This document shows positions 17,089 through 27,015 of a stretch of DNA of 27,031 bases, in pieces. The DNA is from an uncultured Geminicoccaceae bacterium (lineage in GTDB: Bacteria > Pseudomonadota > Alphaproteobacteria > Geminicoccales > Geminicoccaceae), in assembly GCA_964475675.1 (NCBI GenBank), contig CAYYZI010000002.1:1-27031 (forward strand). The letters run 5' to 3'. Under the pieces are notes generated by a model. The model saw nothing but the letters and a program-made list of their open reading frames with translations. It had not been told where the DNA came from and did not search any database. How positions within the stretch are numbered: the first letter of the stretch is position 1; each line of letters starts with the position of its first letter. Made by a program: the position numbers and the translations under genes.

Positions 17089-17769
17089 GTGCCTGTCATG
17101 CTGATCACCGGGGCCAGTCGCGGCCTCGGCCTCGCTCTGGTCGGGACCTATGCCGCACAGGGATGGCGGGTCCATGCCTGCTGCCGCGTGCCGGAGCGCG
17201 CCCATGCCCTGCAGGCGATACGCGGCGAGGTGGAGATCCACCGCCTCGATGTGCGCGACCAGACCGCCTACCGGCCGCTGGCCGATCGTCTCGTCGAGGA
17301 ACCGATCGATGTCCTCATCGCCAATGCGGGAATCCCCGGGCCCAAGGACCGCATCGAGATGCTGGACATTCCGGGCTGGTTCGAAACCTTCCATGTCAAC
17401 AGCATCGCACCGCTGGTCCTGGCCGGTGCCTTCCACCATCACGTCGCCCGCAGCACCGAACGGAAGATGATCGCCATTTCCAGCATTCTGGGCAGCATCG
17501 GCGACAACCGCTCGGGCGGGCTCTACGCGTATCGCTGCAGCAAGGCGGCCCTCAACATGGCCTGGCGGTCCCTGTCTTGCGAGTTGCGCGAGGAAGGGGT
17601 GATCTGCACCCTGGTTCATCCCGGCTGGGTACGGACATCGATGGGCGGGGAGGGGGCGCCATTGGAGCCGCGCGAGGCGGCGGCGGCGATCTTCACCCTG
17701 ATCGCGGGATTGGGTCCGGCGCAGAATGGTCGGTTTCTCGACTATCGCGGGCGGGAAATCCCATGGTAA
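17089..17769 (+). CDS. Short-chain dehydrogenase/reductase (CsgA/C-factor-like subgroup)
   Basis: GTG 17089 after GGAG. Motifs LITGASRGLG, IANAG, catalytic YRCSK, VHPGWVRTSMGG. Confidence 0.9.
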   Translation: MPVMLITGASRGLGLALVGTYAAQGWRVHACCRVPERAHALQAIRGEVEIHRLDVRDQTAYRPLADRLVEEPIDVLIANAGIPGPKDRIEMLDIPGWFETFHVNSIAPLVLAGAFHHHVARSTERKMIAISSILGSIGDNRSGGLYAYRCSKAALNMAWRSLSCELREEGVICTLVHPGWVRTSMGGEGAPLEPREAAAAIFTLIAGLGPAQNGRFLDYRGREIPW

Positions 17770-17848
17770 CCAGGGCCGCTGACACGCGTATGCTGGTGCA
17801 CGCGGATACGCCGAAGGAAGCGGATTGGCGAGGGCAGGGGAGGGGATC

Positions 17849-18706
17849 GTGCTGATTTCCGGACGCGCCCGGTTGGCGGCGGTAATCGGCGATCCGATCG
17901 CCCACTCGCTTTCCCCGCGCCTTCACGGCTACTGGCTCGAGCGCTACGGCATCGACGGCGCCTATATCCCGCTCCATGTTCGTGCCGAGGATCTCGCCGA
18001 GGTCTTCCGCCTGCTGCCGAGGCTGGGATTTCGCGGCTGGAACGTGACATTGCCGCACAAGGAGGCGGCCCTGGCGCTGGTCGACGAGGCCGATCCTGCG
18101 GCGCGCCGCATCGGTGCGGTCAACACCGTGCTGGTCGGGGAGGAGGGGCGGCTTTCGGGCCTCAATACCGACGGCTTCGGTTTTCTCGCCAATCTGCGGG
18201 CCCGCGTGCCCGGTCTCGAGCTCGACCGCGGCCCGGCGGTGGTGATCGGGGCCGGCGGTGCCGCCCGAGCGGTGGCATGCGCGCTCTGCGAGGCCGGCTG
18301 CCGCGATCTTCGCATCGTCAACCGTACCGAAGCCCGGGCACGGGCCCTGGCGGCCTGGCTGCAGCAGCAGTTTGCGGTAACCGTCGCCACCTCGCCCTGG
18401 TCGGCGCGGCGGCGGGCCCTGGCGGAGGCGCTGCTCTGCGTCAACTGCACCAGTCTCGGCATGAAGGGGCAGGGGGCTCTCGATCTGCCGCTCGATCTCC
18501 TGCCCCGTCACGCGGTGGTGGTCGATATCGTCTATGTGCCGCTGGAAACCGCCCTGCTGCGGGAGGCCCGGGAGCGAGGCCACCCCGTGGTCGACGGTCT
18601 CGGGATGCTCCTGTGGCAGGCTGTTCCGGGTTTCCGCCACTGGGGCGGCATCGAGCCCGAGATCGACGAGGAGGTCCGGACCTGCCTTTTGCAAGCCCTT
18701 TCCTGA
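17849..18706 (+). CDS. aroE: Shikimate dehydrogenase
   Basis: GTG 17849 after GGAGGGG. Motifs GDPIAHSLSP, NVTLPHKE, IGAVNT, NTDGFGF, GAGGAARA, DIVYVP.ET, DGLGMLLWQA. Confidence 0.96.
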   Translation: MLISGRARLAAVIGDPIAHSLSPRLHGYWLERYGIDGAYIPLHVRAEDLAEVFRLLPRLGFRGWNVTLPHKEAALALVDEADPAARRIGAVNTVLVGEEGRLSGLNTDGFGFLANLRARVPGLELDRGPAVVIGAGGAARAVACALCEAGCRDLRIVNRTEARARALAAWLQQQFAVTVATSPWSARRRALAEALLCVNCTSLGMKGQGALDLPLDLLPRHAVVVDIVYVPLETALLREARERGHPVVDGLGMLLWQAVPGFRHWGGIEPEIDEEVRTCLLQALS

Positions 18707-18733
18707 GCCGGTGCCGGGCGATGTCGCGGGGAG

Positions 18734-18742
18734 TTATCCACA
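18734..18742 (+). promoter_or_regulatory. Perfect DnaA box
   Basis: TTATCCACA, exact consensus, ~20 bp from the AT-rich element and ~100 bp from the first iteron. Confidence 0.85.
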
Positions 18743-18763
18743 GGAGGAAAGGCCGGCGGGGCC

Positions 18764-18797
18764 GTTAGAATGTTATATAGACTCTGTTAGAAAGTTA
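18764..18797 (+). other. AT-rich DNA-unwinding element
   Basis: 25/33 A+T over 18765-18797. Contains GTTAGAAWGTTA twice (18764, 18786), 22 bp apart. Confidence 0.7.
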
Positions 18798-18842
18798 GGG
18801 GCGCGAATCCGCCTTTACTCTCATGGGGTTGCAGGAGATTTT

Positions 18843-19427
18843 GTGAACGATGTACCGAACATCCGTGAATGAAGTACCGAATCGAAGCGTGAACGATGTA
18901 CCGAACATCCGTGAATGAAGTACCGAAGGTGGTGACTTCCGGTTGAAGGGTTTCGGCGTGAATGATGTACCGACCGCCGAGCCTCGCCGATTTGCGGGGA
19001 TTGCGGGAGGATGCCCGCGCTCTTTGTGAACCCCGAGCGCTTTGTGAACGATGTACCGAATGGGCCGTCGGGGCCTGCACTGCGCCGGCGGATGTGAACG
19101 ATGTACCGAGTCCGGTGGCCGTTCGCCCGCGCTCCGCACGGCCGCTGGCGGCTCCGGACAGCGCGCGGCGGAGCGGGCAGGGAAGCGGCCGCCGGAGAAA
19201 GTTCCCCGATCCGCTCTTCCGGGCGGCATCGCCGGGAAATGTGAACGATGTACCGAACCGGAAGCCGGCCGGCGCTCGCAGGGAAACGGTGCCGGACGCG
19301 GCCTTCGGGCGATTTGTGAACGATGTACCGAGTCCGGTGGCCGGTCACCGGTGAACGATGTACCGAAGGGAGGGCAGGGGAGCGCGTCTCTTCCGCCGTC
19401 CGCGGGGGAATGTGAACGATGTACCGA
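18843..19427 (+). repeat. Iteron array: eleven same-orientation 16-bp repeats, consensus GTGAACGATGTACCGA
   Basis: Starts at 18843, 18865, 18889, 18911, 18958, 19044, 19094, 19241, 19316, 19351 and 19412. Copies 2 and 4 read GTGAATGAAGTACCGA; copy 5 reads GTGAATGATGTACCGA. Degenerate copy near 19026. 18843-18881 is duplicated at 18889-18927. Confidence 0.93.
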
Positions 19428-19428
19428 G

Positions 19429-20328
19429 TCAGGCCAGGGGGGCGATGATCTCCGGCGGCCGCTGCCCGCGCGGCCAGAAACTGACCAGGATGCGCTCGTT
19501 GGTCGACCAGCGGCGCGAATCGAACCCCTCCTCGGCGGCCGCCTGCTTGTCCTTGGGATCGAAGCTCATGGCGATGTGGTAATCGGGCAGATCGTCGTCC
19601 TCGACCACCTTCTTGAGCTGCGGTTTGAAGAAGCGGGGCTCCAGCACCGAGCCGCATTTCTCGATCAGCTTGGGCAGGGTGATCACCCATTTCTCCTGAT
19701 GCCCGCAATGCTTGCGGGCGAGTTCGTAGAGCCGCCGCTTGAGCCCCATCGACAGGGCGAAATAGCGCTGGTTGATGGTCAGCACCCGGCGATCCTTGAC
19801 GATTGCCCGGAACATCCAGTCGTTGAGGGAGATCTCGCATGCTCCCATGATCTTCTTGCCGCTCTTGGTCCGTCGCTCGAGGATGCGGAAGGTCTCGATC
19901 CAGCCGAAACCGCGTCTTTCCTTGATCTCTCCCGCCTCGATGGTGGTCAGGATGGTGGTCGAGCGCAGCCGGAACATGGCATCGAGAAACAGTTCATACG
20001 CCCGCTTGCCGGTGCCCCGGCCGGTCATCTTGAGGAAATTGTGGGCGTTGAAACGTACCGTCTTGTCGACCGGCAGGCCGCGCTCCAGCCGGTCGTTGAT
20101 GATCGAGGCGATGTAGATCAGGACATCCTTGTCCCAGATGGTGGCCAGTCCCTTCTCGCCCGGCCGCACCTCGATCTTGACCTTGCCGTCGTCGTAGACG
20201 AGCGGCTTCATCCGCGGCGCCTTCTGCAGCGAGAAGAACGGAAACTCCATCAGCGCCCGATCGTCCTTGAAGGGCGCGTTGATCAGGCTGTCGAGAAAGA
20301 GATCGACCTGCTTTTCCGCCATGCTCAT
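19429..20328 (-). CDS. repA: Plasmid replication initiator, RPA (replication initiator protein A) family
   Basis: PFKDDRALMEFPFFSL, GLATIWDKDVLIY, VRFNAHNFLKMTGRGTGKRAYELFLDAMFRLRSTTI, YFALSMGLKRRLYELARKHCG. Flanked on both sides by the 16-bp repeat. Confidence 0.9.
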   Translation of the reverse strand: MSMAEKQVDLFLDSLINAPFKDDRALMEFPFFSLQKAPRMKPLVYDDGKVKIEVRPGEKGLATIWDKDVLIYIASIINDRLERGLPVDKTVRFNAHNFLKMTGRGTGKRAYELFLDAMFRLRSTTILTTIEAGEIKERRGFGWIETFRILERRTKSGKKIMGACEISLNDWMFRAIVKDRRVLTINQRYFALSMGLKRRLYELARKHCGHQEKWVITLPKLIEKCGSVLEPRFFKPQLKKVVEDDDLPDYHIAMSFDPKDKQAAAEEGFDSRRWSTNERILVSFWPRGQRPPEIIAPLA

Positions 20329-20350
20329 GGTCCGGTCGTCCCGCCTGCAG

Positions 20351-20366
20351 GTGAACGATGTACCGA
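20351..20366 (+). promoter_or_regulatory. Solo iteron upstream of repA (probable autoregulatory operator)
   Basis: Exact GTGAACGATGTACCGA, 22 nt upstream of the repA ATG. Confidence 0.75.
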
Positions 20367-20579
20367 ATCCGCAGCCGCGCCGCTTGCGCGGCCGGGGGCA
20401 CCGGGCGGCGCCGGCATCACGGCCGACCCCGTCGGGTGATCTGCGCGGCCGGTCCGCGATGACGGAAATCGAGGCATGGCCGTCCCGGAATTGGCGATTC
20501 CGCCGACGGAGTTAGCGGCAATGCCCCCGTCCCGTCCAGAGAGCTTTCGACCATGCCGGGAAAATCTCCCGCCCGTCAC

Positions 20580-20608
20580 CTTGAAGGCGTCAGCGGCAAT
20601 GCCCTTAT
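20580..20608 (+). promoter_or_regulatory. RpoH (sigma32)-like promoter of hsp20
   Basis: CTTGAA-N16-CCCTTAT, ~85 nt upstream of the Hsp20 start. Confidence 0.55.
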
Positions 20609-20693
20609 GAACCGGTGTGGTGGCGTCTCTGGGAAACGCGGCAGGATACCTCGGGGTTTCATCGAAACCGGACAGGATGAAGGGGAGATCGCC

Positions 20694-21179
20694 ATGAATT
20701 TCCGCATGTTGACGCCGTTCGGACGGCAGGAGCTGGCCGCCGGTGAGGATCCGTTCACCGCCATGCGGCGCGAGATGGACCGGCTGTTCGACGAGATGAC
20801 CCGCAGCTTCGGGCTGCCCCGTACACCTCTCGGCGAGGGGGTGCTGGCGCCGCGGGTCGATGTCAAGGAAACCGAGGATGCCATCGTCGTCCAGGCGGAG
20901 CTGCCCGGGGTCGAGGAAAAGGATGTCGAGATCGAGTTCGCCGACGGCGTGCTGACGCTGCGCGGCGAGAAGAAGCAGGAGCGCGAGGAGGAGGAAAAGG
21001 AGAAGGGCTACTATCTGATGGAACGTTCCTACGGTGCCTTTCTCCGCCGCATCCCGATTCCCGCCGAGATCGACGAGGACAACATCCGGGCGGTCTTCGA
21101 CAAGGGGGTGCTGACCGTCACCCTGCCCAAGAAGCCCGAGTCCCAGCCCAGGAAGATCGCCATCAAGGCCGGCGAATAG
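20694..21179 (+). CDS. Small heat shock protein, Hsp20/alpha-crystallin family
   Basis: ATG 20694 after AGGGGAG. Motifs PRVDVKETED, AELPGV, GVLTLRGEK, ERSYGAFLRRI.IP, AVFDKGVLTVTLPK. Confidence 0.95.
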   Translation: MNFRMLTPFGRQELAAGEDPFTAMRREMDRLFDEMTRSFGLPRTPLGEGVLAPRVDVKETEDAIVVQAELPGVEEKDVEIEFADGVLTLRGEKKQEREEEEKEKGYYLMERSYGAFLRRIPIPAEIDEDNIRAVFDKGVLTVTLPKKPESQPRKIAIKAGE

Positions 21180-21218
21180 AGAGGCTTTCGCCTTTTCTCC
21201 GGCCCGTCCGGATCCGCC

Positions 21219-21244
21219 GAACGCCCCGCAGCCGCGGGGCGTTC
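21219..21244 (+). terminator. 11-bp hairpin downstream of hsp20 (possible terminator, no clear U-tract)
   Basis: GAACGCCCCGC-AGCC-GCGGGGCGTTC. Confidence 0.45.
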
Positions 21245-21311
21245 CCGGCGTTGGGCCCTTTCCCCGCCGCCTGCCGCTTTCTAGACTGGGCATTGCGGCG
21301 AGGAGGCTTCG

Positions 21312-22019
21312 GTGGCTGCTGGCGGTGACAGGGAGCGGGAACTCGAAGTGGTGGACCTGCTGGCCGGGCTCGAGCCGCGGGAGCGGGCCCGTATCGCCGG
21401 CCTCTGCCGTTTCCAGCGGGTGGCTGCCGGCGCCACCGTGTTGGCGCGCGAGGAAGAGGGCTCGGATCTGGTGTTCGTGCTCGAAGGCAGTCTCGAGGTG
21501 ATCGAGATCCTGCCGGGCGGCCGTGCCATCAGTCTCGCCCTGGTAGAGGCCGGCGGTCATGTCGGCGAGCTCGCGGCCATCGATGGCGGGCCGCGGGCGG
21601 CCGCGGTACGGGCGCGGGAGGCGAGCCGTCTCGCCCGGCTCGATGCGGCGAACTTCCGCCGGCTGCTCGAACGCCATCCGGGGATCGCCGGCCGTCTGCT
21701 GCGGGATCTGGTGCGCATCATCCGCCTCTCCAACCTGCGCATCGGCGAGCTCGCCGGACTGCGCGTAGTGCAGCGCCTGGCCCGCCATCTCCTCGAACAG
21801 GCCCGGATGGAGGAGGGCCGGTGGGTGCTCCGGCCGGCGCCCACCCAGGAGGAGATGGCGGCCGCCCTCGCCACCACCCGCGAGACGGTGGCCCGGGCCC
21901 TGGCCCGCCTGCGGGCGGCGGATCTGGTGCGGCGCCGGGGCCGTACCCTGCATCTGCCCGATCATGCCCGGCTGCTGGCGGTGATCGGCAGCCGCGAGGA
22001 TGGCGGTCCCCTGCGTTAG
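21312..22019 (+). CDS. Crp/Fnr-family transcriptional regulator
   Basis: GAGGAGG RBS before GTG. cNMP-binding motif GELAAIDGGPRAAAVRA, HTH TQEEMAAALATTRETVARAL. No FNR-type Cys cluster. Confidence 0.92.
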   Translation: MAAGGDRERELEVVDLLAGLEPRERARIAGLCRFQRVAAGATVLAREEEGSDLVFVLEGSLEVIEILPGGRAISLALVEAGGHVGELAAIDGGPRAAAVRAREASRLARLDAANFRRLLERHPGIAGRLLRDLVRIIRLSNLRIGELAGLRVVQRLARHLLEQARMEEGRWVLRPAPTQEEMAAALATTRETVARALARLRAADLVRRRGRTLHLPDHARLLAVIGSREDGGPLR

Positions 22020-22194
22020 GGCCGTTCCTTCCCTCCGCACAATACTTCTCCGAAACCACCAAGACGGCGCAAGTGCACACAGATGCTCACAGGAATGCGA
22101 GCATGTACCTCCCGTCACATCCTCCGAAGACATTCGATGACATGCTGCGGTGTGAAGAAAACCCGTCGGTTTTCGGAAATACCGGAGCGTTGTC

Positions 22195-22545
22195 ATGTCC
22201 GAGACGATCAGGATCCTCTCCCGGCCCGAGCCCTGGCAGACGGCGCTGCGCGTGCTCGGCATCAGTGCCGCCACCCTGTTTCTCCTGCTGGGGGTGCGCA
22301 GTGTCACCGCCGCTCCCCGCTGCGGCCAGCGCCAGAGCCTCGGCGAAACGCTGGCCACGGCCCGGGGCGAGCGTCCGGTCTCCCTGGGGCTCGACCGCAC
22401 CGGCCAGGTGGTGGAGCTGTTCGCTTCCGAGGGCGGTCGCACCTGGACCCTGCTGGTCACCCGGCCGGACGGCGCCAGCTGCATCATCGCCCGCGGCCGC
22501 TACTGGGAAATGCTGACCCCGCCGGGGCCCCGCGAGGGGGCCTGA
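22195..22545 (+). CDS. Small exported/membrane-anchored hypothetical protein (116 aa, two Cys)
   Basis: GGAG RBS, hydrophobic N-terminal segment, C...GE...LG...VELFAS...TWTLLVTRPDG.SCIIA.G..W pattern that I recall from alphaproteobacterial hypotheticals (unverified). Confidence 0.75.
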   Translation: MSETIRILSRPEPWQTALRVLGISAATLFLLLGVRSVTAAPRCGQRQSLGETLATARGERPVSLGLDRTGQVVELFASEGGRTWTLLVTRPDGASCIIARGRYWEMLTPPGPREGA

Positions 22546-22578
22546 TCGGGCACATCCTCCGGCACCGAGGAGACCGTC

Positions 22579-23295
22579 ATGAATGCCGTGTCCCGCACCC
22601 GTCTCGCGCCGCTCGCCGCGCTGCCGGCGGCCGGCATCCGCCCCCTGCACGACCGTCCCGCGGCGGATCCCTGCCGCCAGCTGCTGATGCTGCGTTTCCT
22701 CCTGGTCAATCTGGTGGGCGCCGCCCTGCTTCTGGCGGTCTGGCAGCAGGGCTGGATCGGCCGCATCGTCAGCGCCGACGAGAGCCGCATCGTGCTGGTG
22801 ATCGCCGCCCTGTTTCTGGCCGGTTTCGCCTGGTCGCTGCGACGCGCCGCCGAGCTCGCCTTCGAGCTCGACCAGGCGCGCTGCCGCCGGCCCCGGCCGG
22901 GCTCGCGTGCGGCCCGCTTTCTGCGTCTGGCGGGAGAGGTGCCGCCGTCGGCGCGGGGCGGCATCGAGACGGCACTGCGCCTGGAGCTGGCGGCGAGCAT
23001 CGCTCCCGTCCGGCATCTCGGCGGCGTGCTCGTTCTGCTGGGGCTGATCGGCACGGTGCTCGGCTTCGTGATCGCCCTCTCGGGTGTCGACCCGGCGGCA
23101 GCCGCCGATGTCTCGGCCATCGCCCCGATGGTCTCGAGCCTGGTCGCCGGGCTCGGGGTGGCCCTCTACACCACGCTGGTGGGAGCAGTGCTCAATCTCT
23201 GGCTGATGACCAACTACCGTCTCCTCGAGGGCGGTGCCACCCGGCTCCTGGGCAGGCTGCTCGAACGCGGTGCCGCCGTGCCGGCACGGATGTGA
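22579..23295 (+). CDS. MotA/TolQ/ExbB proton-channel family protein
   Basis: GAGGAG RBS, four hydrophobic segments, family signatures LLGLIGTVLGF and GVALYTTLVG. Confidence 0.88.
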   Translation: MNAVSRTRLAPLAALPAAGIRPLHDRPAADPCRQLLMLRFLLVNLVGAALLLAVWQQGWIGRIVSADESRIVLVIAALFLAGFAWSLRRAAELAFELDQARCRRPRPGSRAARFLRLAGEVPPSARGGIETALRLELAASIAPVRHLGGVLVLLGLIGTVLGFVIALSGVDPAAAADVSAIAPMVSSLVAGLGVALYTTLVGAVLNLWLMTNYRLLEGGATRLLGRLLERGAAVPARM

Positions 23296-23307
23296 GGAGA
23301 TCCGGGC

Positions 23308-23913
23308 ATGCGACCGCTGGACGGTTTCGACGAGGATGCCGAAGACACCGTGTTCCGCGATGTCATTCTGCTCGCGCTGGCCGGCTTTCTGGCCGTCCTC
23401 CTCCTGCTGCTGCCCCATGTCGCCCGGCCGGGGGTCGATCGGACCGCCGATGTCGAGCCGCCCGGCAGCATCATGGTCGAGGCCCGCTGGCCGGACACGC
23501 TCGATGCCGATGTCGATCTCTGGGTGCAGGCCCCGGGCGACATCCCGGTCGGCTATTCCAACAAGGGCGGGCTGGTGTTCGATCTCCTGCGCGACGATCT
23601 CGGCGCGCGCGGCGATGCCATGGAAATCAACTACGAGATCAGCTACGGCCGCAGCCTTCCGGCCGGCGAATACACCGTCAATCTGCATCTCTACCGCAAC
23701 CCCGCCAACCGCTTTCCGGTGCCGGTCACGGTGGTGGTGCGCGTGCGCCCGGAGGGGCGGGGGGCGAGCCGGCAGATCCTGATGGACCGCCTCGCGCTCG
23801 ATCGGGTCGGGCAGGAGCGCACCGTGTTCCGCTTCCGCCTCGACGATCGGGGCCGGCTGGTGCCGGGCAGCGTGACCCGCCTGCCGAGACCGTTGCGCAG
23901 CACCGGGGGATGA
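23308..23913 (+). CDS. Single-pass ExbD/MotB-like partner with a YfaP/DUF2135-like soluble domain
   Basis: GAGGAG RBS. TM helix starting FRD18VILL. Soluble part has W...DADVDLWVQAPG...VGYSN, LRDDLG and GEYTVNLHLY. Confidence 0.78.
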   Translation: MRPLDGFDEDAEDTVFRDVILLALAGFLAVLLLLLPHVARPGVDRTADVEPPGSIMVEARWPDTLDADVDLWVQAPGDIPVGYSNKGGLVFDLLRDDLGARGDAMEINYEISYGRSLPAGEYTVNLHLYRNPANRFPVPVTVVVRVRPEGRGASRQILMDRLALDRVGQERTVFRFRLDDRGRLVPGSVTRLPRPLRSTGG

Positions 23914-24428
23914 CGATGCCGATCTGGATGGGACTGCTTCTGGTGGCTGCCGCCGCTCTGGCCCTGCTCACCGGCCTCGTGCTGCGCAGCCCGCATCCCC
24001 TGTCGGTCAAGCTCCTGGCCCTGGCGGTGCCGGCCCTGTTCCTGCCGCTGCTGTGGCTGGCCACCGGCGAGATCCTGGGGCGGGCCAAGCCGGTGCAGCT
24101 CGAATGGTGGCGCTCGCGGATCGCGAGCGTCACCGTGGTGGCCAGCCATCTCCGCGAAGGCGAGGGAATCTATCTCTGGCTCCTGCTCCCGGGCGGGGAG
24201 GGGCCGCGGGCCTATGTCCTGCCCTGGCGGCAGCAGCTCGCCGAAAATCTGACCGAGGCCAGCAGGGAGGCCCGGGAGAACGGCACCGCGGTGATCATGC
24301 GGCTGCCCTTCGAACCTTCCCTCGACGATCGCCCGCCGGTTTTCCATGCCCTGCCGCAGCCGGCACTGCCGCCCAAGGAATGGCGCCTGCCGCCGCCTCC
24401 CTTCTCCGCTCCGGGCGCGCCTGCCTGA
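23910..24428 (+). CDS. Hypothetical membrane protein (two N-terminal TMs, 172 aa)
   Basis: 3' part of ORF 22083..24428. ATGA-coupled to the previous gene. Soluble domain EGEGIYLWL...PRAYVLPW, Pro-rich tail. Confidence 0.78.
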   Translation: MTMPIWMGLLLVAAAALALLTGLVLRSPHPLSVKLLALAVPALFLPLLWLATGEILGRAKPVQLEWWRSRIASVTVVASHLREGEGIYLWLLLPGGEGPRAYVLPWRQQLAENLTEASREARENGTAVIMRLPFEPSLDDRPPVFHALPQPALPPKEWRLPPPPFSAPGAPA

Positions 24429-24478
24429 AGACGCCGCCGCCAGCGGAATCCGCATCATGGCAGACGGGTGTACCATTG

Positions 24479-24502
24479 GCCGCGGATACGCGGCTTTTTC
24501 TT
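24479..24502 (+). terminator. Probable intrinsic terminator of the channel operon
   Basis: GCCGCG-GATA-CGCGGC followed by TTTTTCTT. Confidence 0.6.
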
Positions 24503-24750
24503 CGAGCTGCCCTGCACCTGCCAAACCGCGACCGTAGCTGTACCCGCGGGCAATTCGCCTGTGGGTACGCATCTGTGAGATATGGCATTGTTCCTCGGGG
24601 CGAGACATGGCACACCGCCCCGGGTTGGTTCGGCCTCGCCCCGAACCCATTGTTAAAGAGGAACGCCGGTCCAAGAACGAATCGCCCGGACCGCTCGGTT
24701 TCGGACCATGGTCGCCCCTCTGGGTTGGCAGGCCCGCCGGAGAAGCACGC

Positions 24751-27015
24751 ATGCGCGGTGAGATTGTGCAGACACGCCCCGACCTTTCGGAACGTTTGTT
24801 CGAGGGTGGGGAGGTGATTGATGTGGGGAGTGTGTTTGCGGTTCTGCGTCGTCGCAAGTGGCTGATTGCGGCGTTTTGCGTGCTGGGGGTGGTGCTGGGT
24901 CTGGCGGTCTCCTTGGCGATGGAGCCGAAATACACGGCGCGGGCGCAGATCGTGCTGGATCCGCGGCAGCCCAACTATGCCGATCTGCAGGCGGTGCTGG
25001 CGGGCCTGCCGGCGGATGCGGCGACCATTGCCACCCAGATCAAGCTGTTGCAGTCGCGGGGGTTCCATGCCCGGGTGATGGAGGATCTGGGTCTGTTCGA
25101 CGATCCCGAGTTCAATCCCTTTGCCGCCTTGCCGCCGGGGGCGGTACCGCTGGCGCCGCGCGAGGGTCTGGCGGCGGTGCTGTTCTTCCTGCCGCGGAAC
25201 TGGCTGGTGGCGGCGGGTCTGGTGGATCCGCCGCGGCCGCTGTTGGAGAGCGAGGCGGCGGCGCGGGCGCGGGAGATCGCGCTTGCGCGTTTCGCCAGGG
25301 GGCTCGAGCTTTCGGGGGACATGTCCTATGTGATCGGTCTTTCCTTCACCTCCGAGGATCCGGTCAAGGCGGCGCGGATCGCCAACCGGATGGTGGAGAT
25401 GTTCGTCGACGACCAGCTCAAGACCAAGCTGCTGGCGACCAGTCGGGTGAGTCTGTGGCTGGAGGAGCGGCTGGCTTCCCTCAAGCGGGAGGTGGCCGAG
25501 GCCGAGGCGGCGGTGGAGCGGTTCCGGGCGGAGAACAATCTGCTGTCGGCCCAGGCCGAGGGTCCGACCCTGAGCGAGCAGGAGCTGGGGGATCTCAACC
25601 GGCAGCTGATCGAGGCGCGGGCGGAGCTGGCCGAGAAGCGGGCGCGGCTCTCGCTGGTGCGGGAGCTGGAGCGCGGCGGCCGGGCCCTGGATTCGGTGCC
25701 GGAGGTGGCGGCTTCGCCGATCATCGCCAATCTGCGCAACCAGGAGACCGAATTGCTGCGCCAGGAGGCGGAGCTGTCGACGCTCTATGGCGAGAAGCAT
25801 CCGCGGATGGTCCAGCTGCGGCGCGAGAAGGCCAATCTGCAGGCCAAGATCCGCACCGAGATCGCGCGCATCGTGCGCACCCTGGAGAACGATGTGCGGG
25901 GGGTGGCGGCGCGGGTGGCGGCGCTGGAGAAGGAGCTTTCGGGGGTCAAGCGGCAGACCGCGGTCAACCGCGAGGCGGAGGTCAAGCTGCGCGAGCTGGA
26001 GCGCCAGGCCCAGGCCAGCCGCCAGCTCTACGAGACCTTCCTGCAGCGCTACAAGGAGACCCGTGCCCAGCAGGAGATCGTCGAGCCGGATGTGCGCATC
26101 GTCGCCAAGGCGACGCCGCCGGCGGGGCCCAGCACCCCGGGGCCGAAGCTGTTCGCGGCCGCCGGCTTCGGCGTGTTCTTCGTGTTCGGCAGCGTGCTGG
26201 CGCTCCTTTTGGAGCGGATGGACCGGGGGCTTCGCAGTGCCCGCGAGGTGGAGGCGCTGTTGGGCCTGCCGACCCTCGCCCGGGTGCCGCTCCTGCAGCG
26301 GCTGGGCCGCGGCAGGAAACCCCACCAGTATCTGATGGACAAGCCGCTTTCGGCTTATGCCGAGGCGCTCAGGGGGATCTACACCGCGCTCAAGCTGGGC
26401 AGCGGCGACCGCCCGCCCAAGGTGGTGATGGTGACCTCCTCGCTGCCCGAGGAGGGCAAGACGACGCTGGCGGTGAGCCTCGCCATGTTCGCCGCCCGGG
26501 CCAAGAAGCGGGCCCTGCTGATCGATCTCGATCTGCGCCACCCCAGCGTCCATCGCGAGCTCGGCTGGCAGATCTCCAGCGGCCTCGTCGAATATGTGAG
26601 CGGCGAGCGCGGCCGCGAGGAGGTGATCCAGCACGATCTCGAAAGCGGCCTCTACTTCCTGCCGGTGCGCGGCCAGACCACCAACCCCACCGATCTCCTC
26701 GAGCATCGGCGGATGGCCGAGCTGATGGCCTGGGCCCGCGAGGAATTCGATCTGGTGGTGCTCGACACCGCGCCCCTGGCCAGCGTCAGCGACAGCCGCC
26801 TCGCCGCGCTTTTGGCCGACAAGGTGCTGTTCGTGCTGCGCTGGGGGGTCACCGAGGCCGGGGCGGCCAGCGAAAGCGTCCAGCTCCTGCGCGAGATCGG
26901 GGTCGAACCCGCCGGTACCGTGTTCACCATGGTCGACCTCAAGAAACACGCCCAGTACGGCTACGGAGACCTCGGACAGTACTACGGCAAAGCCGCCAAA
27001 TACTACATCGATTGA
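24751..27015 (+). CDS. wzc: Wzc/GumC/ExoP-type polysaccharide co-polymerase with BY-kinase domain
   Basis: ATG 24751 after GGAG. Wzz-type N-terminus (LRRRKWLI...PKYTARAQI), coiled coils, second TM, Walker A SSLPEEGKTT, A' LIDLDLRHP, Walker B VVLDTAP, C-terminal Tyr cluster QYGYGDLGQYYGKAAKYY. Confidence 0.93.
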   Translation: MRGEIVQTRPDLSERLFEGGEVIDVGSVFAVLRRRKWLIAAFCVLGVVLGLAVSLAMEPKYTARAQIVLDPRQPNYADLQAVLAGLPADAATIATQIKLLQSRGFHARVMEDLGLFDDPEFNPFAALPPGAVPLAPREGLAAVLFFLPRNWLVAAGLVDPPRPLLESEAAARAREIALARFARGLELSGDMSYVIGLSFTSEDPVKAARIANRMVEMFVDDQLKTKLLATSRVSLWLEERLASLKREVAEAEAAVERFRAENNLLSAQAEGPTLSEQELGDLNRQLIEARAELAEKRARLSLVRELERGGRALDSVPEVAASPIIANLRNQETELLRQEAELSTLYGEKHPRMVQLRREKANLQAKIRTEIARIVRTLENDVRGVAARVAALEKELSGVKRQTAVNREAEVKLRELERQAQASRQLYETFLQRYKETRAQQEIVEPDVRIVAKATPPAGPSTPGPKLFAAAGFGVFFVFGSVLALLLERMDRGLRSAREVEALLGLPTLARVPLLQRLGRGRKPHQYLMDKPLSAYAEALRGIYTALKLGSGDRPPKVVMVTSSLPEEGKTTLAVSLAMFAARAKKRALLIDLDLRHPSVHRELGWQISSGLVEYVSGERGREEVIQHDLESGLYFLPVRGQTTNPTDLLEHRRMAELMAWAREEFDLVVLDTAPLASVSDSRLAALLADKVLFVLRWGVTEAGAASESVQLLREIGVEPAGTVFTMVDLKKHAQYGYGDLGQYYGKAAKYYID

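Follow-up and report, generated by a model that had tools for sequence, protein, structure and literature searches.

The window analysed here is a 27,031-nucleotide stretch of DNA from an uncultured Geminicoccaceae bacterium (contig CAYYZI010000002.1 of assembly GCA_964475675.1), and at positions 22195-24428 of its + strand it holds four tightly spaced genes of one orientation, called as open reading frames (ORFs) and designated g1 to g4. Three of these, g2, g3 and g4, form a conserved trio which probably encodes an inner-membrane ion-driven complex that belongs to the MotA/ExbB (5:2 motor) superfamily and lies outside the described systems. An earlier note on this DNA, made from the sequence alone, had treated all four genes as one motor module; the conserved unit is the trio and not the quartet. 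A fuller proposal, plausible though somewhat short of probable, is that the trio represents a class of self-sufficient proton-driven envelope machines apart from Mot, Ton, Tol, Gld, Agl and Zorya, in which a Ca2+-binding beta-sandwich would be rotated or cycled with g4 close above the inner membrane, and which would be run under cell-cycle control by CtrA in Alphaproteobacteria, copied by phages for use on the host envelope and, in lineages like the present one, duplicated with the copy rewired to a regulator of the cyclic-nucleotide type.

The synteny sample consisted of 80 loci from named genomes of the Geminicoccaceae, Azospirillum, Kiloniellales, Sneathiellales and the gammaproteobacterial Granulosicoccaceae, a range that agrees with the earlier note, which had named marine Alphaproteobacteria as carriers of similar trios. 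The g2 gene precedes g3 at all 80 loci and g4 lies directly after g3 at 77, the three others ending at a contig edge; the order g2-g3-g4 is kept even at loci with just 26-35 % identity, and the genes thus co-occur across genomes. ORF clustering over the 80 loci yielded no further widely shared neighbour. The genes that recur beside the trio are lineage-specific housekeeping genes (malate synthase G, GlmS, RF3, HU and an ABC-F protein), on which ground a defence-island or Ton/Tol-accessory context was rejected for the main clade.

In a near-length search the g3 family fell into more than 3,800 clusters at 90 % identity, all named "hypothetical protein" or not named; at 50 % identity it has 2,451 clusters (E<=0.001). 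A g3 gene is present in 30 of the 36 genomes of the window's family, often in two or three copies. When the phylum was sampled evenly, 19 of the 393 good genomes carried it, mostly within a few families, among them Bradyrhizobium and its kin (9 of 11). A tree has two deep clades, type A, which includes the window, and type B, which includes Bradyrhizobium and an AT-rich 1.6-Mb alphaproteobacterium. Two metagenomic proteins (P0324 and P0325) are single polypeptides in which a MotA_ExbB part is joined to a type B g3 part, and either represent rare fusions that occur in nature or result from read-through in gene calling; such fused proteins favour a joint function of g2 and g3.

In the tree the window copy belongs to a sub-clade of six, well supported and nested within the Geminicoccaceae, of which five loci were read (the window, L103, L104/L105, L139 and L140/L141). 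The g1 gene sits before the trio at four of these five loci and near a trio at just one of the 80 other loci. It has no Pfam match and matches phrog_25396 (E 6e-15), a family found in 39 of 61 related genomes with one to six copies per genome, mostly away from the trio (for example G000:C58:8640-8843). By this distribution of its relatives g1 is a lineage-specific accessory, linked to the trio only in the window's own sub-clade. In two other genomes (L058 and G037:C90) a member of the g1 family also lies about 2 kb downstream of a trio.

Trios are also carried by phages, as the earlier note had suggested for large phage genomes. With the window protein as query, six rhizobiophage records match. 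In the temperate phage 16-3, p038 is a MotA-like protein of 138 amino acids (aa) with four transmembrane (TM) helices and almost no cytoplasmic loop, p040 is a g3 homologue that retains the Asp described below, and p042 is a g4-type two-TM protein whose tail reads PEPPK; between these three lie two small genes. A type B query matches 29 phage records, including 150-170-kb lytic Rhizobium myophages, and in the 156-kb phage P10VF genes 191-193 correspond to the trio, gene 193 being assigned by position and architecture only. The phage trios are small, with proteins of about 140, 180 and 140 residues.

The product of g2 is, by its sequence, a member of the MotA/ExbB/TolQ superfamily, as had been proposed from its four TM segments and GLIGTV/ALYTT signatures. 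Hydropathy gives four hydrophobic segments for g2 (one each for g1 and g3 and two for g4), the motifs read GLIGTVLGF and VALYTTLVG, and the protein passes the Pfam MotA_ExbB model (PF01618; 29.2 bits, cut-off 22.9). All 24 aligned homologues keep the GLxGT and YTT motifs, the invariant residues being G155, L156, G158, T159 and G162 in the one and G191, L196, T199 and L200 around the other. Residues 36-202, the whole membrane domain, align with the PADLOC ZorA3 profiles (E 1e-9). NCBIfam returned rows for ZorA, PomA and TolQ, all far sub-threshold, the ZorA family model scoring 22 bits against a cut-off of 250. A profile built from 24 homologues down to 24 % identity matched, among solved structures, MotA (8gqy, E 5e-5), a 696-aa MotA/TolQ/ExbB chain (8vvn, 9e-4), PomA (2.5e-3) and also ZorA, and no ExbB or TolQ chain in the PDB at E<1. 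The cytoplasmic loop of g2 has about 55 residues and is almost absent in the phage versions.

The single TM helix of g3 carries Asp18 within FRDVILLALAGF. This residue is invariant in 14 of 14 aligned g3 sequences and was found in 142 of 146 representatives taken from the 150 best clusters at 50 % identity, so the earlier reading of g3 as a single-TM protein with a membrane Asp holds across diverse relatives, and nearly all homologues keep the acidic residue, the Bradyrhizobium clade being an exception. A mid-membrane Asp in the B subunit is a hallmark of 5:2 ion-driven motors (PMC9389320), and by analogy with these the same role may be transferred to the Asp of g3. The g3 helix aligns in register with that of the TolR of its own genome, Asp on Asp.

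The g3 protein gave no curated family match above cut-off, no hit to the ExbD, OmpA, MotB or ZorB families and no solved relative by sequence search; with Pfam DUF2135 (PF09906) it scored 12.7 bits at an E of 0.14, where the cut-off is 22. The model of g3 (predicted local distance difference test, pLDDT, 79.5 overall and about 90 in the beta domain) has a single long helix, joined through a linker of about 15 residues to a beta-sandwich. Residues 52-198 of this model match DUF2135 proteins among the AFDB clusters (E 3.5e-13 to 1e-5) and, in the PDB, the TerD fold (E 7.5e-4 by Foldseek), with 2qz7_B (Z 8.9, root-mean-square deviation 3.8, 132 aligned residues) and 2kxt (Z 8.2), the next row having a Z of 5.7. 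At the level of the predicted fold the head is a sandwich clearly similar to DUF2135 and with a likeness to TerD, neither ExbD-like nor OmpA-like. The absence of an OmpA-like or ExbD domain, as claimed earlier, is thereby upheld, and the claim of a DUF2135-like head stands for the fold and fails for the sequence profile. The head residues W61, D68, D70, R95, D96, D97, G99, E110 and R115 are invariant or nearly so; the acidic cluster among them is consistent with a metal or ligand site, and the modelled likeness to TerD suggests that the head probably binds Ca2+.

The third protein, g4, has a two-TM hairpin, a small alpha/beta (OB/TOBE-like) domain and a Pro-rich tail, in which P154 and K156 of a P-x-K motif are invariant or nearly so; its model has a pLDDT of 83.2. 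The C-terminal domain should be periplasmic, because the inter-TM loop is strongly positive (K+R 3.08 there versus 0.03 at the N-terminus). No family match was found for g4 in Pfam, NCBIfam, PADLOC or phrog, and no TonB_C or TolA domain. Foldseek gave nothing in the PDB at E<=0.001 and only unnamed proteins among the AFDB clusters. In a wide fold search generic helical hairpins dominated and the soluble part matched only the OB-like eIF5A (Z 6.5), while an Atlas shape search returned viral and unnamed clusters and weak TOBE/OB rows. One of these viral clusters consists of 297-aa Phage_lysozyme proteins (g4 residues 31-166, TM-score 0.48 by query), a weak hint from model comparison that some phages may carry a fusion of a g4-like module with a cell-wall hydrolase. 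No longer, fused forms of g4 were found, which is weak evidence, and an apparent g3-g4 fusion of 374 aa (P0326) has garbled stretches, looks like a frameshifted gene call and was disregarded. Prediction of a g3-g4 complex (alignments A1 and A2) scored 0.12 against a mark of 0.32, which speaks neither for nor against an interaction.

These features of g4 bear on a stricter Ton/Tol-like reading, judged rather unlikely and favoured by the earlier note with g4 as force transducer, in which g4 would bind through its TM hairpin at the periphery of the g2 ring, as TonB or TolA would, and its Pro-rich tail would pull on a partner in the cell wall or outer membrane. The layout of the three genes (A subunit, B subunit, anchored protein with a Pro-rich C-terminus) is the one expected, g4 is strictly linked to g3 and its C-terminal part is predicted to be periplasmic, and P154 and K156 are invariant even in phage p042; against this, g4 has two TM helices, lacks TonB_C and TolA domains and has a periplasmic part of only about 115 residues, and receptor, Pal-like or outer-membrane genes are not conserved nearby. 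Moreover, the genome is equipped with a TolQRA cluster: contig C16 carries canonical TolQ and TolR genes together with a Pro-rich TolA-like gene, and the sole ExbD-family gene of the genome adjoins TolQ on another contig than the window; because these genes are present elsewhere, the trio is additional to Tol and not its replacement.

The source genome, 88.8 % complete and recovered from a microbial-mat metagenome, has five MotA_ExbB genes, namely TolQ (with TolR and the TolA-like gene), two others and two trio copies. The window copy is the second, diverged one; the other, orthodox copy lies on contig C143, is 45 %, 61 % and 53 % identical to g2, g3 and g4 of the window, respectively, and groups with copies of related genomes. 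The two copies differ in what lies upstream. About 150 nt upstream of the C143 copy is a perfect CtrA-type box, TTAAACGACCGTTAAC (L003 5076-5091), and genomes of the same genus (L007 and L009) have perfect boxes at the matching place. The region upstream of g2 was searched in 77 loci, with random windows of the same loci as the control. Perfect boxes (TTAA-N7-TTAA) were found in 10 loci and boxes with at most one mismatch in 33, as compared with random-window means of 0.5 and 2.9; the 61 non-gammaproteobacterial loci contributed 10 and 28, and the 16 gammaproteobacterial loci none and 5. The boxes cluster 120-180 nt before the gene, and judged by these motif counts the CtrA-type box is enriched across alphaproteobacterial trio loci.

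No CtrA-type box was found near the window operon or at any sub-clade locus read, and no FNR/FixK-type box (TTGA-N6-TCAA) near the window operon. A Crp/Fnr-family gene lies directly upstream at all five sub-clade loci, and its product probably regulates the operon in this sub-clade. A candidate Crp-type operator about 83 nt before g1 (Table 1) aligns with TGTAT-N6-TCACA in L103 and a perfect TGTGA-N6-TCACA in L104/L105, and L140/L141 and L139 have a CGTCACA-like half-site. The pattern TGT-N8-TCACA occurs once in the 27-kb window, where 0.17 occurrences are expected, and we infer that this is the site which the Crp-family protein would bind. A nearby inverted repeat is unique in the window and kept in L103, not in L104. 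Since the sub-clade loci have no CtrA-type box and instead have the Crp-family gene directly upstream, the duplicated window copy appears to have exchanged a cell-cycle-type control for a regulator of the cyclic-nucleotide type.

In 5:2 ion-driven motors five A subunits surround two B helices, and ion flux is coupled to rotation. If the trio works like MotAB and ExbBD, several copies of g2 would encircle the TM helices of a g3 dimer, and protons would travel from the periplasm to Asp18 of g3 along a path lined by Thr159 and Thr199 of g2, the protonation and deprotonation of Asp18 driving a relative movement of g2 and g3. With so little of g2 in the cytoplasm (the short loop, and almost none in phages), the output is placed in the membrane plane or the periplasm, via the g3 head, g4 or both. 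The TerD-like sandwich on its short linker would be the candidate working part, and g4 would be carried along by its TM hairpin, exposing its small domain and Pro-x-Lys tail to the periplasm. In the sub-clade of the window the CtrA-type box would have been lost, with the Crp-family gene, the candidate operator and g1 in front of the trio instead. From the sequences and structural models we infer a separate motor class.

Several observations weigh against this interpretation. Solved motors resemble g2 only weakly (best E 5e-5) and just over TM3-TM4 and the preceding helix, and the g3 helix matches TolR without significance (E 0.023, probability 2 %). A 1:1 fusion of g2 and g3 fits a 5:2 assembly awkwardly, and may be a product of read-through. 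All nine Bradyrhizobium-family g3 sequences (L122 and L126-L133) read FDPLGVMLFKAL, with Val in the Asp column and Lys four residues later, and their sole remaining Asp is one turn earlier; the g2 partner retains the GT and YTT motifs, and in this clade either the charge site shifts or the mechanism differs. The Crp-type site is drawn from just three to five related sequences, and a literature search found no phenotype for the trio.

The exception in Bradyrhizobium would suit a gated ion channel or sensor, in which a Ca2+-binding g3 head senses a periplasmic signal and gates a proton leak, perhaps in signalling or in the response to envelope stress. The invariant acidic cluster and the resemblance of the head to Ca2+-binding TerD domains, the minimal cytoplasmic part, and hsp20 and a cyclic-nucleotide-type regulator as conserved neighbours in the window's sub-clade are all in keeping with it. 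It is nevertheless quite improbable, as the strictly linked third membrane protein suits a machine better and the characterised MotA/ExbB members with an Asp-bearing partner are all energy transducers (PMC9389320).

Only a slim chance is given to a phage-related envelope function, whether a Zorya-like defence or superinfection exclusion or a tool of the phage acting on the host envelope. The best defence-library matches of g2 are the ZorA3 membrane domains, Rhizobium phages both temperate and large lytic carry trios, many genomes have several copies, and the window copy adjoins a plasmid-type replicon. However, there is no ZorA tail, no peptidoglycan-binding domain of the ZorB kind and no ZorC/D/E, g3 and g4 match no PADLOC model, the trio is found in most genomes of the family amid housekeeping genes and outside defence islands, and a cell-cycle-type CtrA box is unexpected for a defence system.

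It is most improbable that the sub-clade module serves exopolysaccharide production or export, as a Wzz/GNVR/tyrosine-kinase gene 3' of g4 in the window, L103 and the diverged L104 and a UDP-glucose/GDP-mannose dehydrogenase gene in L139 might suggest, given that L140/L141 carry a convergent ABC transporter gene there, the 80 main-clade loci have no conserved polysaccharide neighbours, g4 and the Wzz gene are 179 nt apart with a terminator-like site between them, and the loci are few and close kin, whose common order may be inherited and not selected. The ion-driven complex remains the preferred reading of the trio.

The features of the locus are listed in Table 1.

Table 1 Features of the trio locus in the window
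Feature	Position	Strand	Description
Crp/Fnr-family regulator gene	21312-22019	+	cNMP-binding domain and HTH_Crp_2 (Pfam); dN/dS 0.20
Candidate Crp-type operator	22104-22119	+	TGTAC-N6-TCACA, about 83 nt 5' of g1 start
Inverted repeat	22158-22173	+	AAAACC-CGTC-GGTTTT, just 5' of g1 ribosome-binding site
g1	22195-22545	+	116 aa; predicted small exported protein, signal/anchor segment 16-39, two Cys
g2	22579-23295	+	238 aa; minimal four-TM MotA/ExbB-family subunit, putative pentameric channel/rotor part
g3	23308-23913	+	201 aa; putative B-subunit analogue: single TM helix, Asp18, linker of about 15 residues, predicted TerD/DUF2135-like beta-sandwich
g4	23916-24428 (alternative start 23910)	+	170 or 172 aa; two-TM hairpin, predicted periplasmic domain, Pro-rich tail
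Terminator-like hairpin	24478-24495, T-rich tail to 24502	+	7-bp stem, GATA loop, 50 nt past g4 stop

The arrangement described earlier, of four co-oriented genes with ribosome-binding sites and a 3' hairpin, was recovered, with Shine-Dalgarno-like GGAG/GAGGAG sequences 5' of g1, g2 and g3 and the same gaps of 33 nt (g1-g2) and 12 nt (g2-g3). The third junction had been read as an overlap of 4 nt; this ATGA overlap (ATG 23910) is possible, but a gap of +2 nt is more likely, because the GGGGGA sequence is better spaced for ATG 23916 and M3 of the longer form aligns with the first Met in 75 of 77 homologues. The g4 homologues of relatives are called at 170 aa, which matches the 23916 start. As for the hairpin, one terminator-like site was observed in the region against 1.7 expected from shuffles, so that its position alone argues for a terminator, and this is suggestive. 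No sigma-70-like promoter was found in a simple scan of 20.3-24.7 kb. The sequencing runs listed as containing this stretch are all DNA runs from a single microbial-mat study, one of which is probably the source, and none is an RNA run. The ratio of nonsynonymous to synonymous substitution rates (dN/dS) against an 86.6 %-identical relative is 0.23, 0.25, 0.26 and 0.12 for g1 to g4, respectively, and because of these values all four are genuine genes under purifying selection.

The neighbours of the operon within 19.4-27 kb include, by Pfam, an RPA-type repA, hsp20, the Crp-family regulator gene and the Wzz/tyrosine-kinase gene; in agreement with what was noted before, this region contains no gene for TonB, TolA, a receptor, the flagellum or a Zorya effector. 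The Wzz/tyrosine-kinase gene (24607-27015) begins 179 nt past g4 and encodes an 802-aa polysaccharide co-polymerase of the Wzz/GNVR/P-loop tyrosine-kinase type. Further upstream of the operon, hsp20 is found at three of the five sub-clade loci. Before the window hsp20 (ATG 20694) is a CTTGAA-N17-CCTTATG sequence (20580-20609), kept in L103 and partly in L104, which we take to resemble the alphaproteobacterial sigma-32 heat-shock promoter consensus. L103 is colinear with positions 17314-24908 of the window at 86.6 % DNA identity. Its genome, GCA_054037455.1 (contigs L103 and L104), holds two diverged copies of the block, with g3 85 % and 68 % identical to that of the window and the order aroE - hsp20 - crp - g1 - g2 - g3 - g4 - Wzz-type gene; an RPA-type repA lies between aroE and hsp20 in one block copy only.

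A literature search on MotAB, ExbBD, TolQR, GldLM, ZorAB and phage-borne homologues yielded no description of the trio; DUF2135 was not mentioned in the papers searched, and the gene names of phage 16-3 gave nothing relevant. Two evolutionary surveys (PMC12505986, PMC12204202) do not describe the trio, and recent surveys of the superfamily report heterogeneous "generic ion transporters" with appended domains of unknown function (DUFs) and new force transducers, the trio not being among those described. What is new here is the presence of two copies under different control, the enrichment of CtrA-type boxes, the Asp exception in Bradyrhizobium and the standing of g1 as a lineage accessory.

To our knowledge only a few types of output of MotA/ExbB proteins have been recognised, namely the rotation of flagella, TonB-dependent uptake, envelope maintenance by Tol-Pal, gliding with type IX secretion, and defence by Zorya. 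All of these were significant discoveries, and the trio would add another type. It is compact and self-contained and occurs in the cultivable Azospirillum brasilense (in strain Sp7 on replicon p1) and Bradyrhizobium, in the Geminicoccaceae isolate Benzoatithermus flavus and in phages 16-3 and P10VF, and is therefore directly testable. The stripped-down phage versions are attractive for structural work on a minimal ion-driven motor, and one genome with a CtrA-box copy and a Crp-regulator copy offers a natural handle on when the machine is needed.

No search placed the genes in a Ton, Tol, Mot, Gld or Zorya system, and the trio resembles and departs from each in its own way. With MotAB and PomAB it shares an A subunit of four TM helices with GxxGT (TM3) and TM4 motifs, for which MotA and PomA are the best solved matches, a partner with a single TM helix and a conserved Asp near its cytoplasmic side, and adjacent A and B genes. 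In contrast to those stators, g3 has neither a plug helix nor an OmpA-like peptidoglycan-binding domain, the g2 loop of about 55 residues has no torque-generating interface, a third membrane protein is obligatory, and no flagellar genes are nearby. The ExbB-ExbD-TonB and TolQ-TolR-TolA systems likewise combine a channel subunit, an Asp-bearing single-TM subunit and an anchored Pro-rich periplasmic protein, and the output is presumably periplasmic here too. The trio differs in having no ExbD fold (PF02472), TonB_C or TolA (no match at E<=1 for g3 or g4), in the four TM helices of g2, rather than three, and the two of g4, and in lacking receptors or Pal/TolB nearby.

For GldL and GldM no chain appeared among the PDB sequence or fold matches, which does not exclude a distant kinship. 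Zorya is approached by the membrane domain of g2, which aligns with ZorA3 (E 1e-9) and with the 696-aa ZorA-like chain, and both are found on mobile DNA; g2 (238 aa) is nevertheless without the long ZorA tail, falling far below the cut-off of the family model (22 bits against 250), g3 is without the ZorB peptidoglycan-binding domain, ZorC/D/E are not adjacent, and the distribution of the trio is that of a core gene. The remaining likeness is to DUF2135, the C-terminal domain of YfaP, and to TerD, both of which the predicted fold of g3 residues 52-198 resembles, with an acidic cluster like that of Ca2+-binding relatives. From the former g3 is set apart by a sequence match below the Pfam cut-off. 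TerD proteins are soluble, whereas the domain of g3 is tethered to a TM helix of the motor type.

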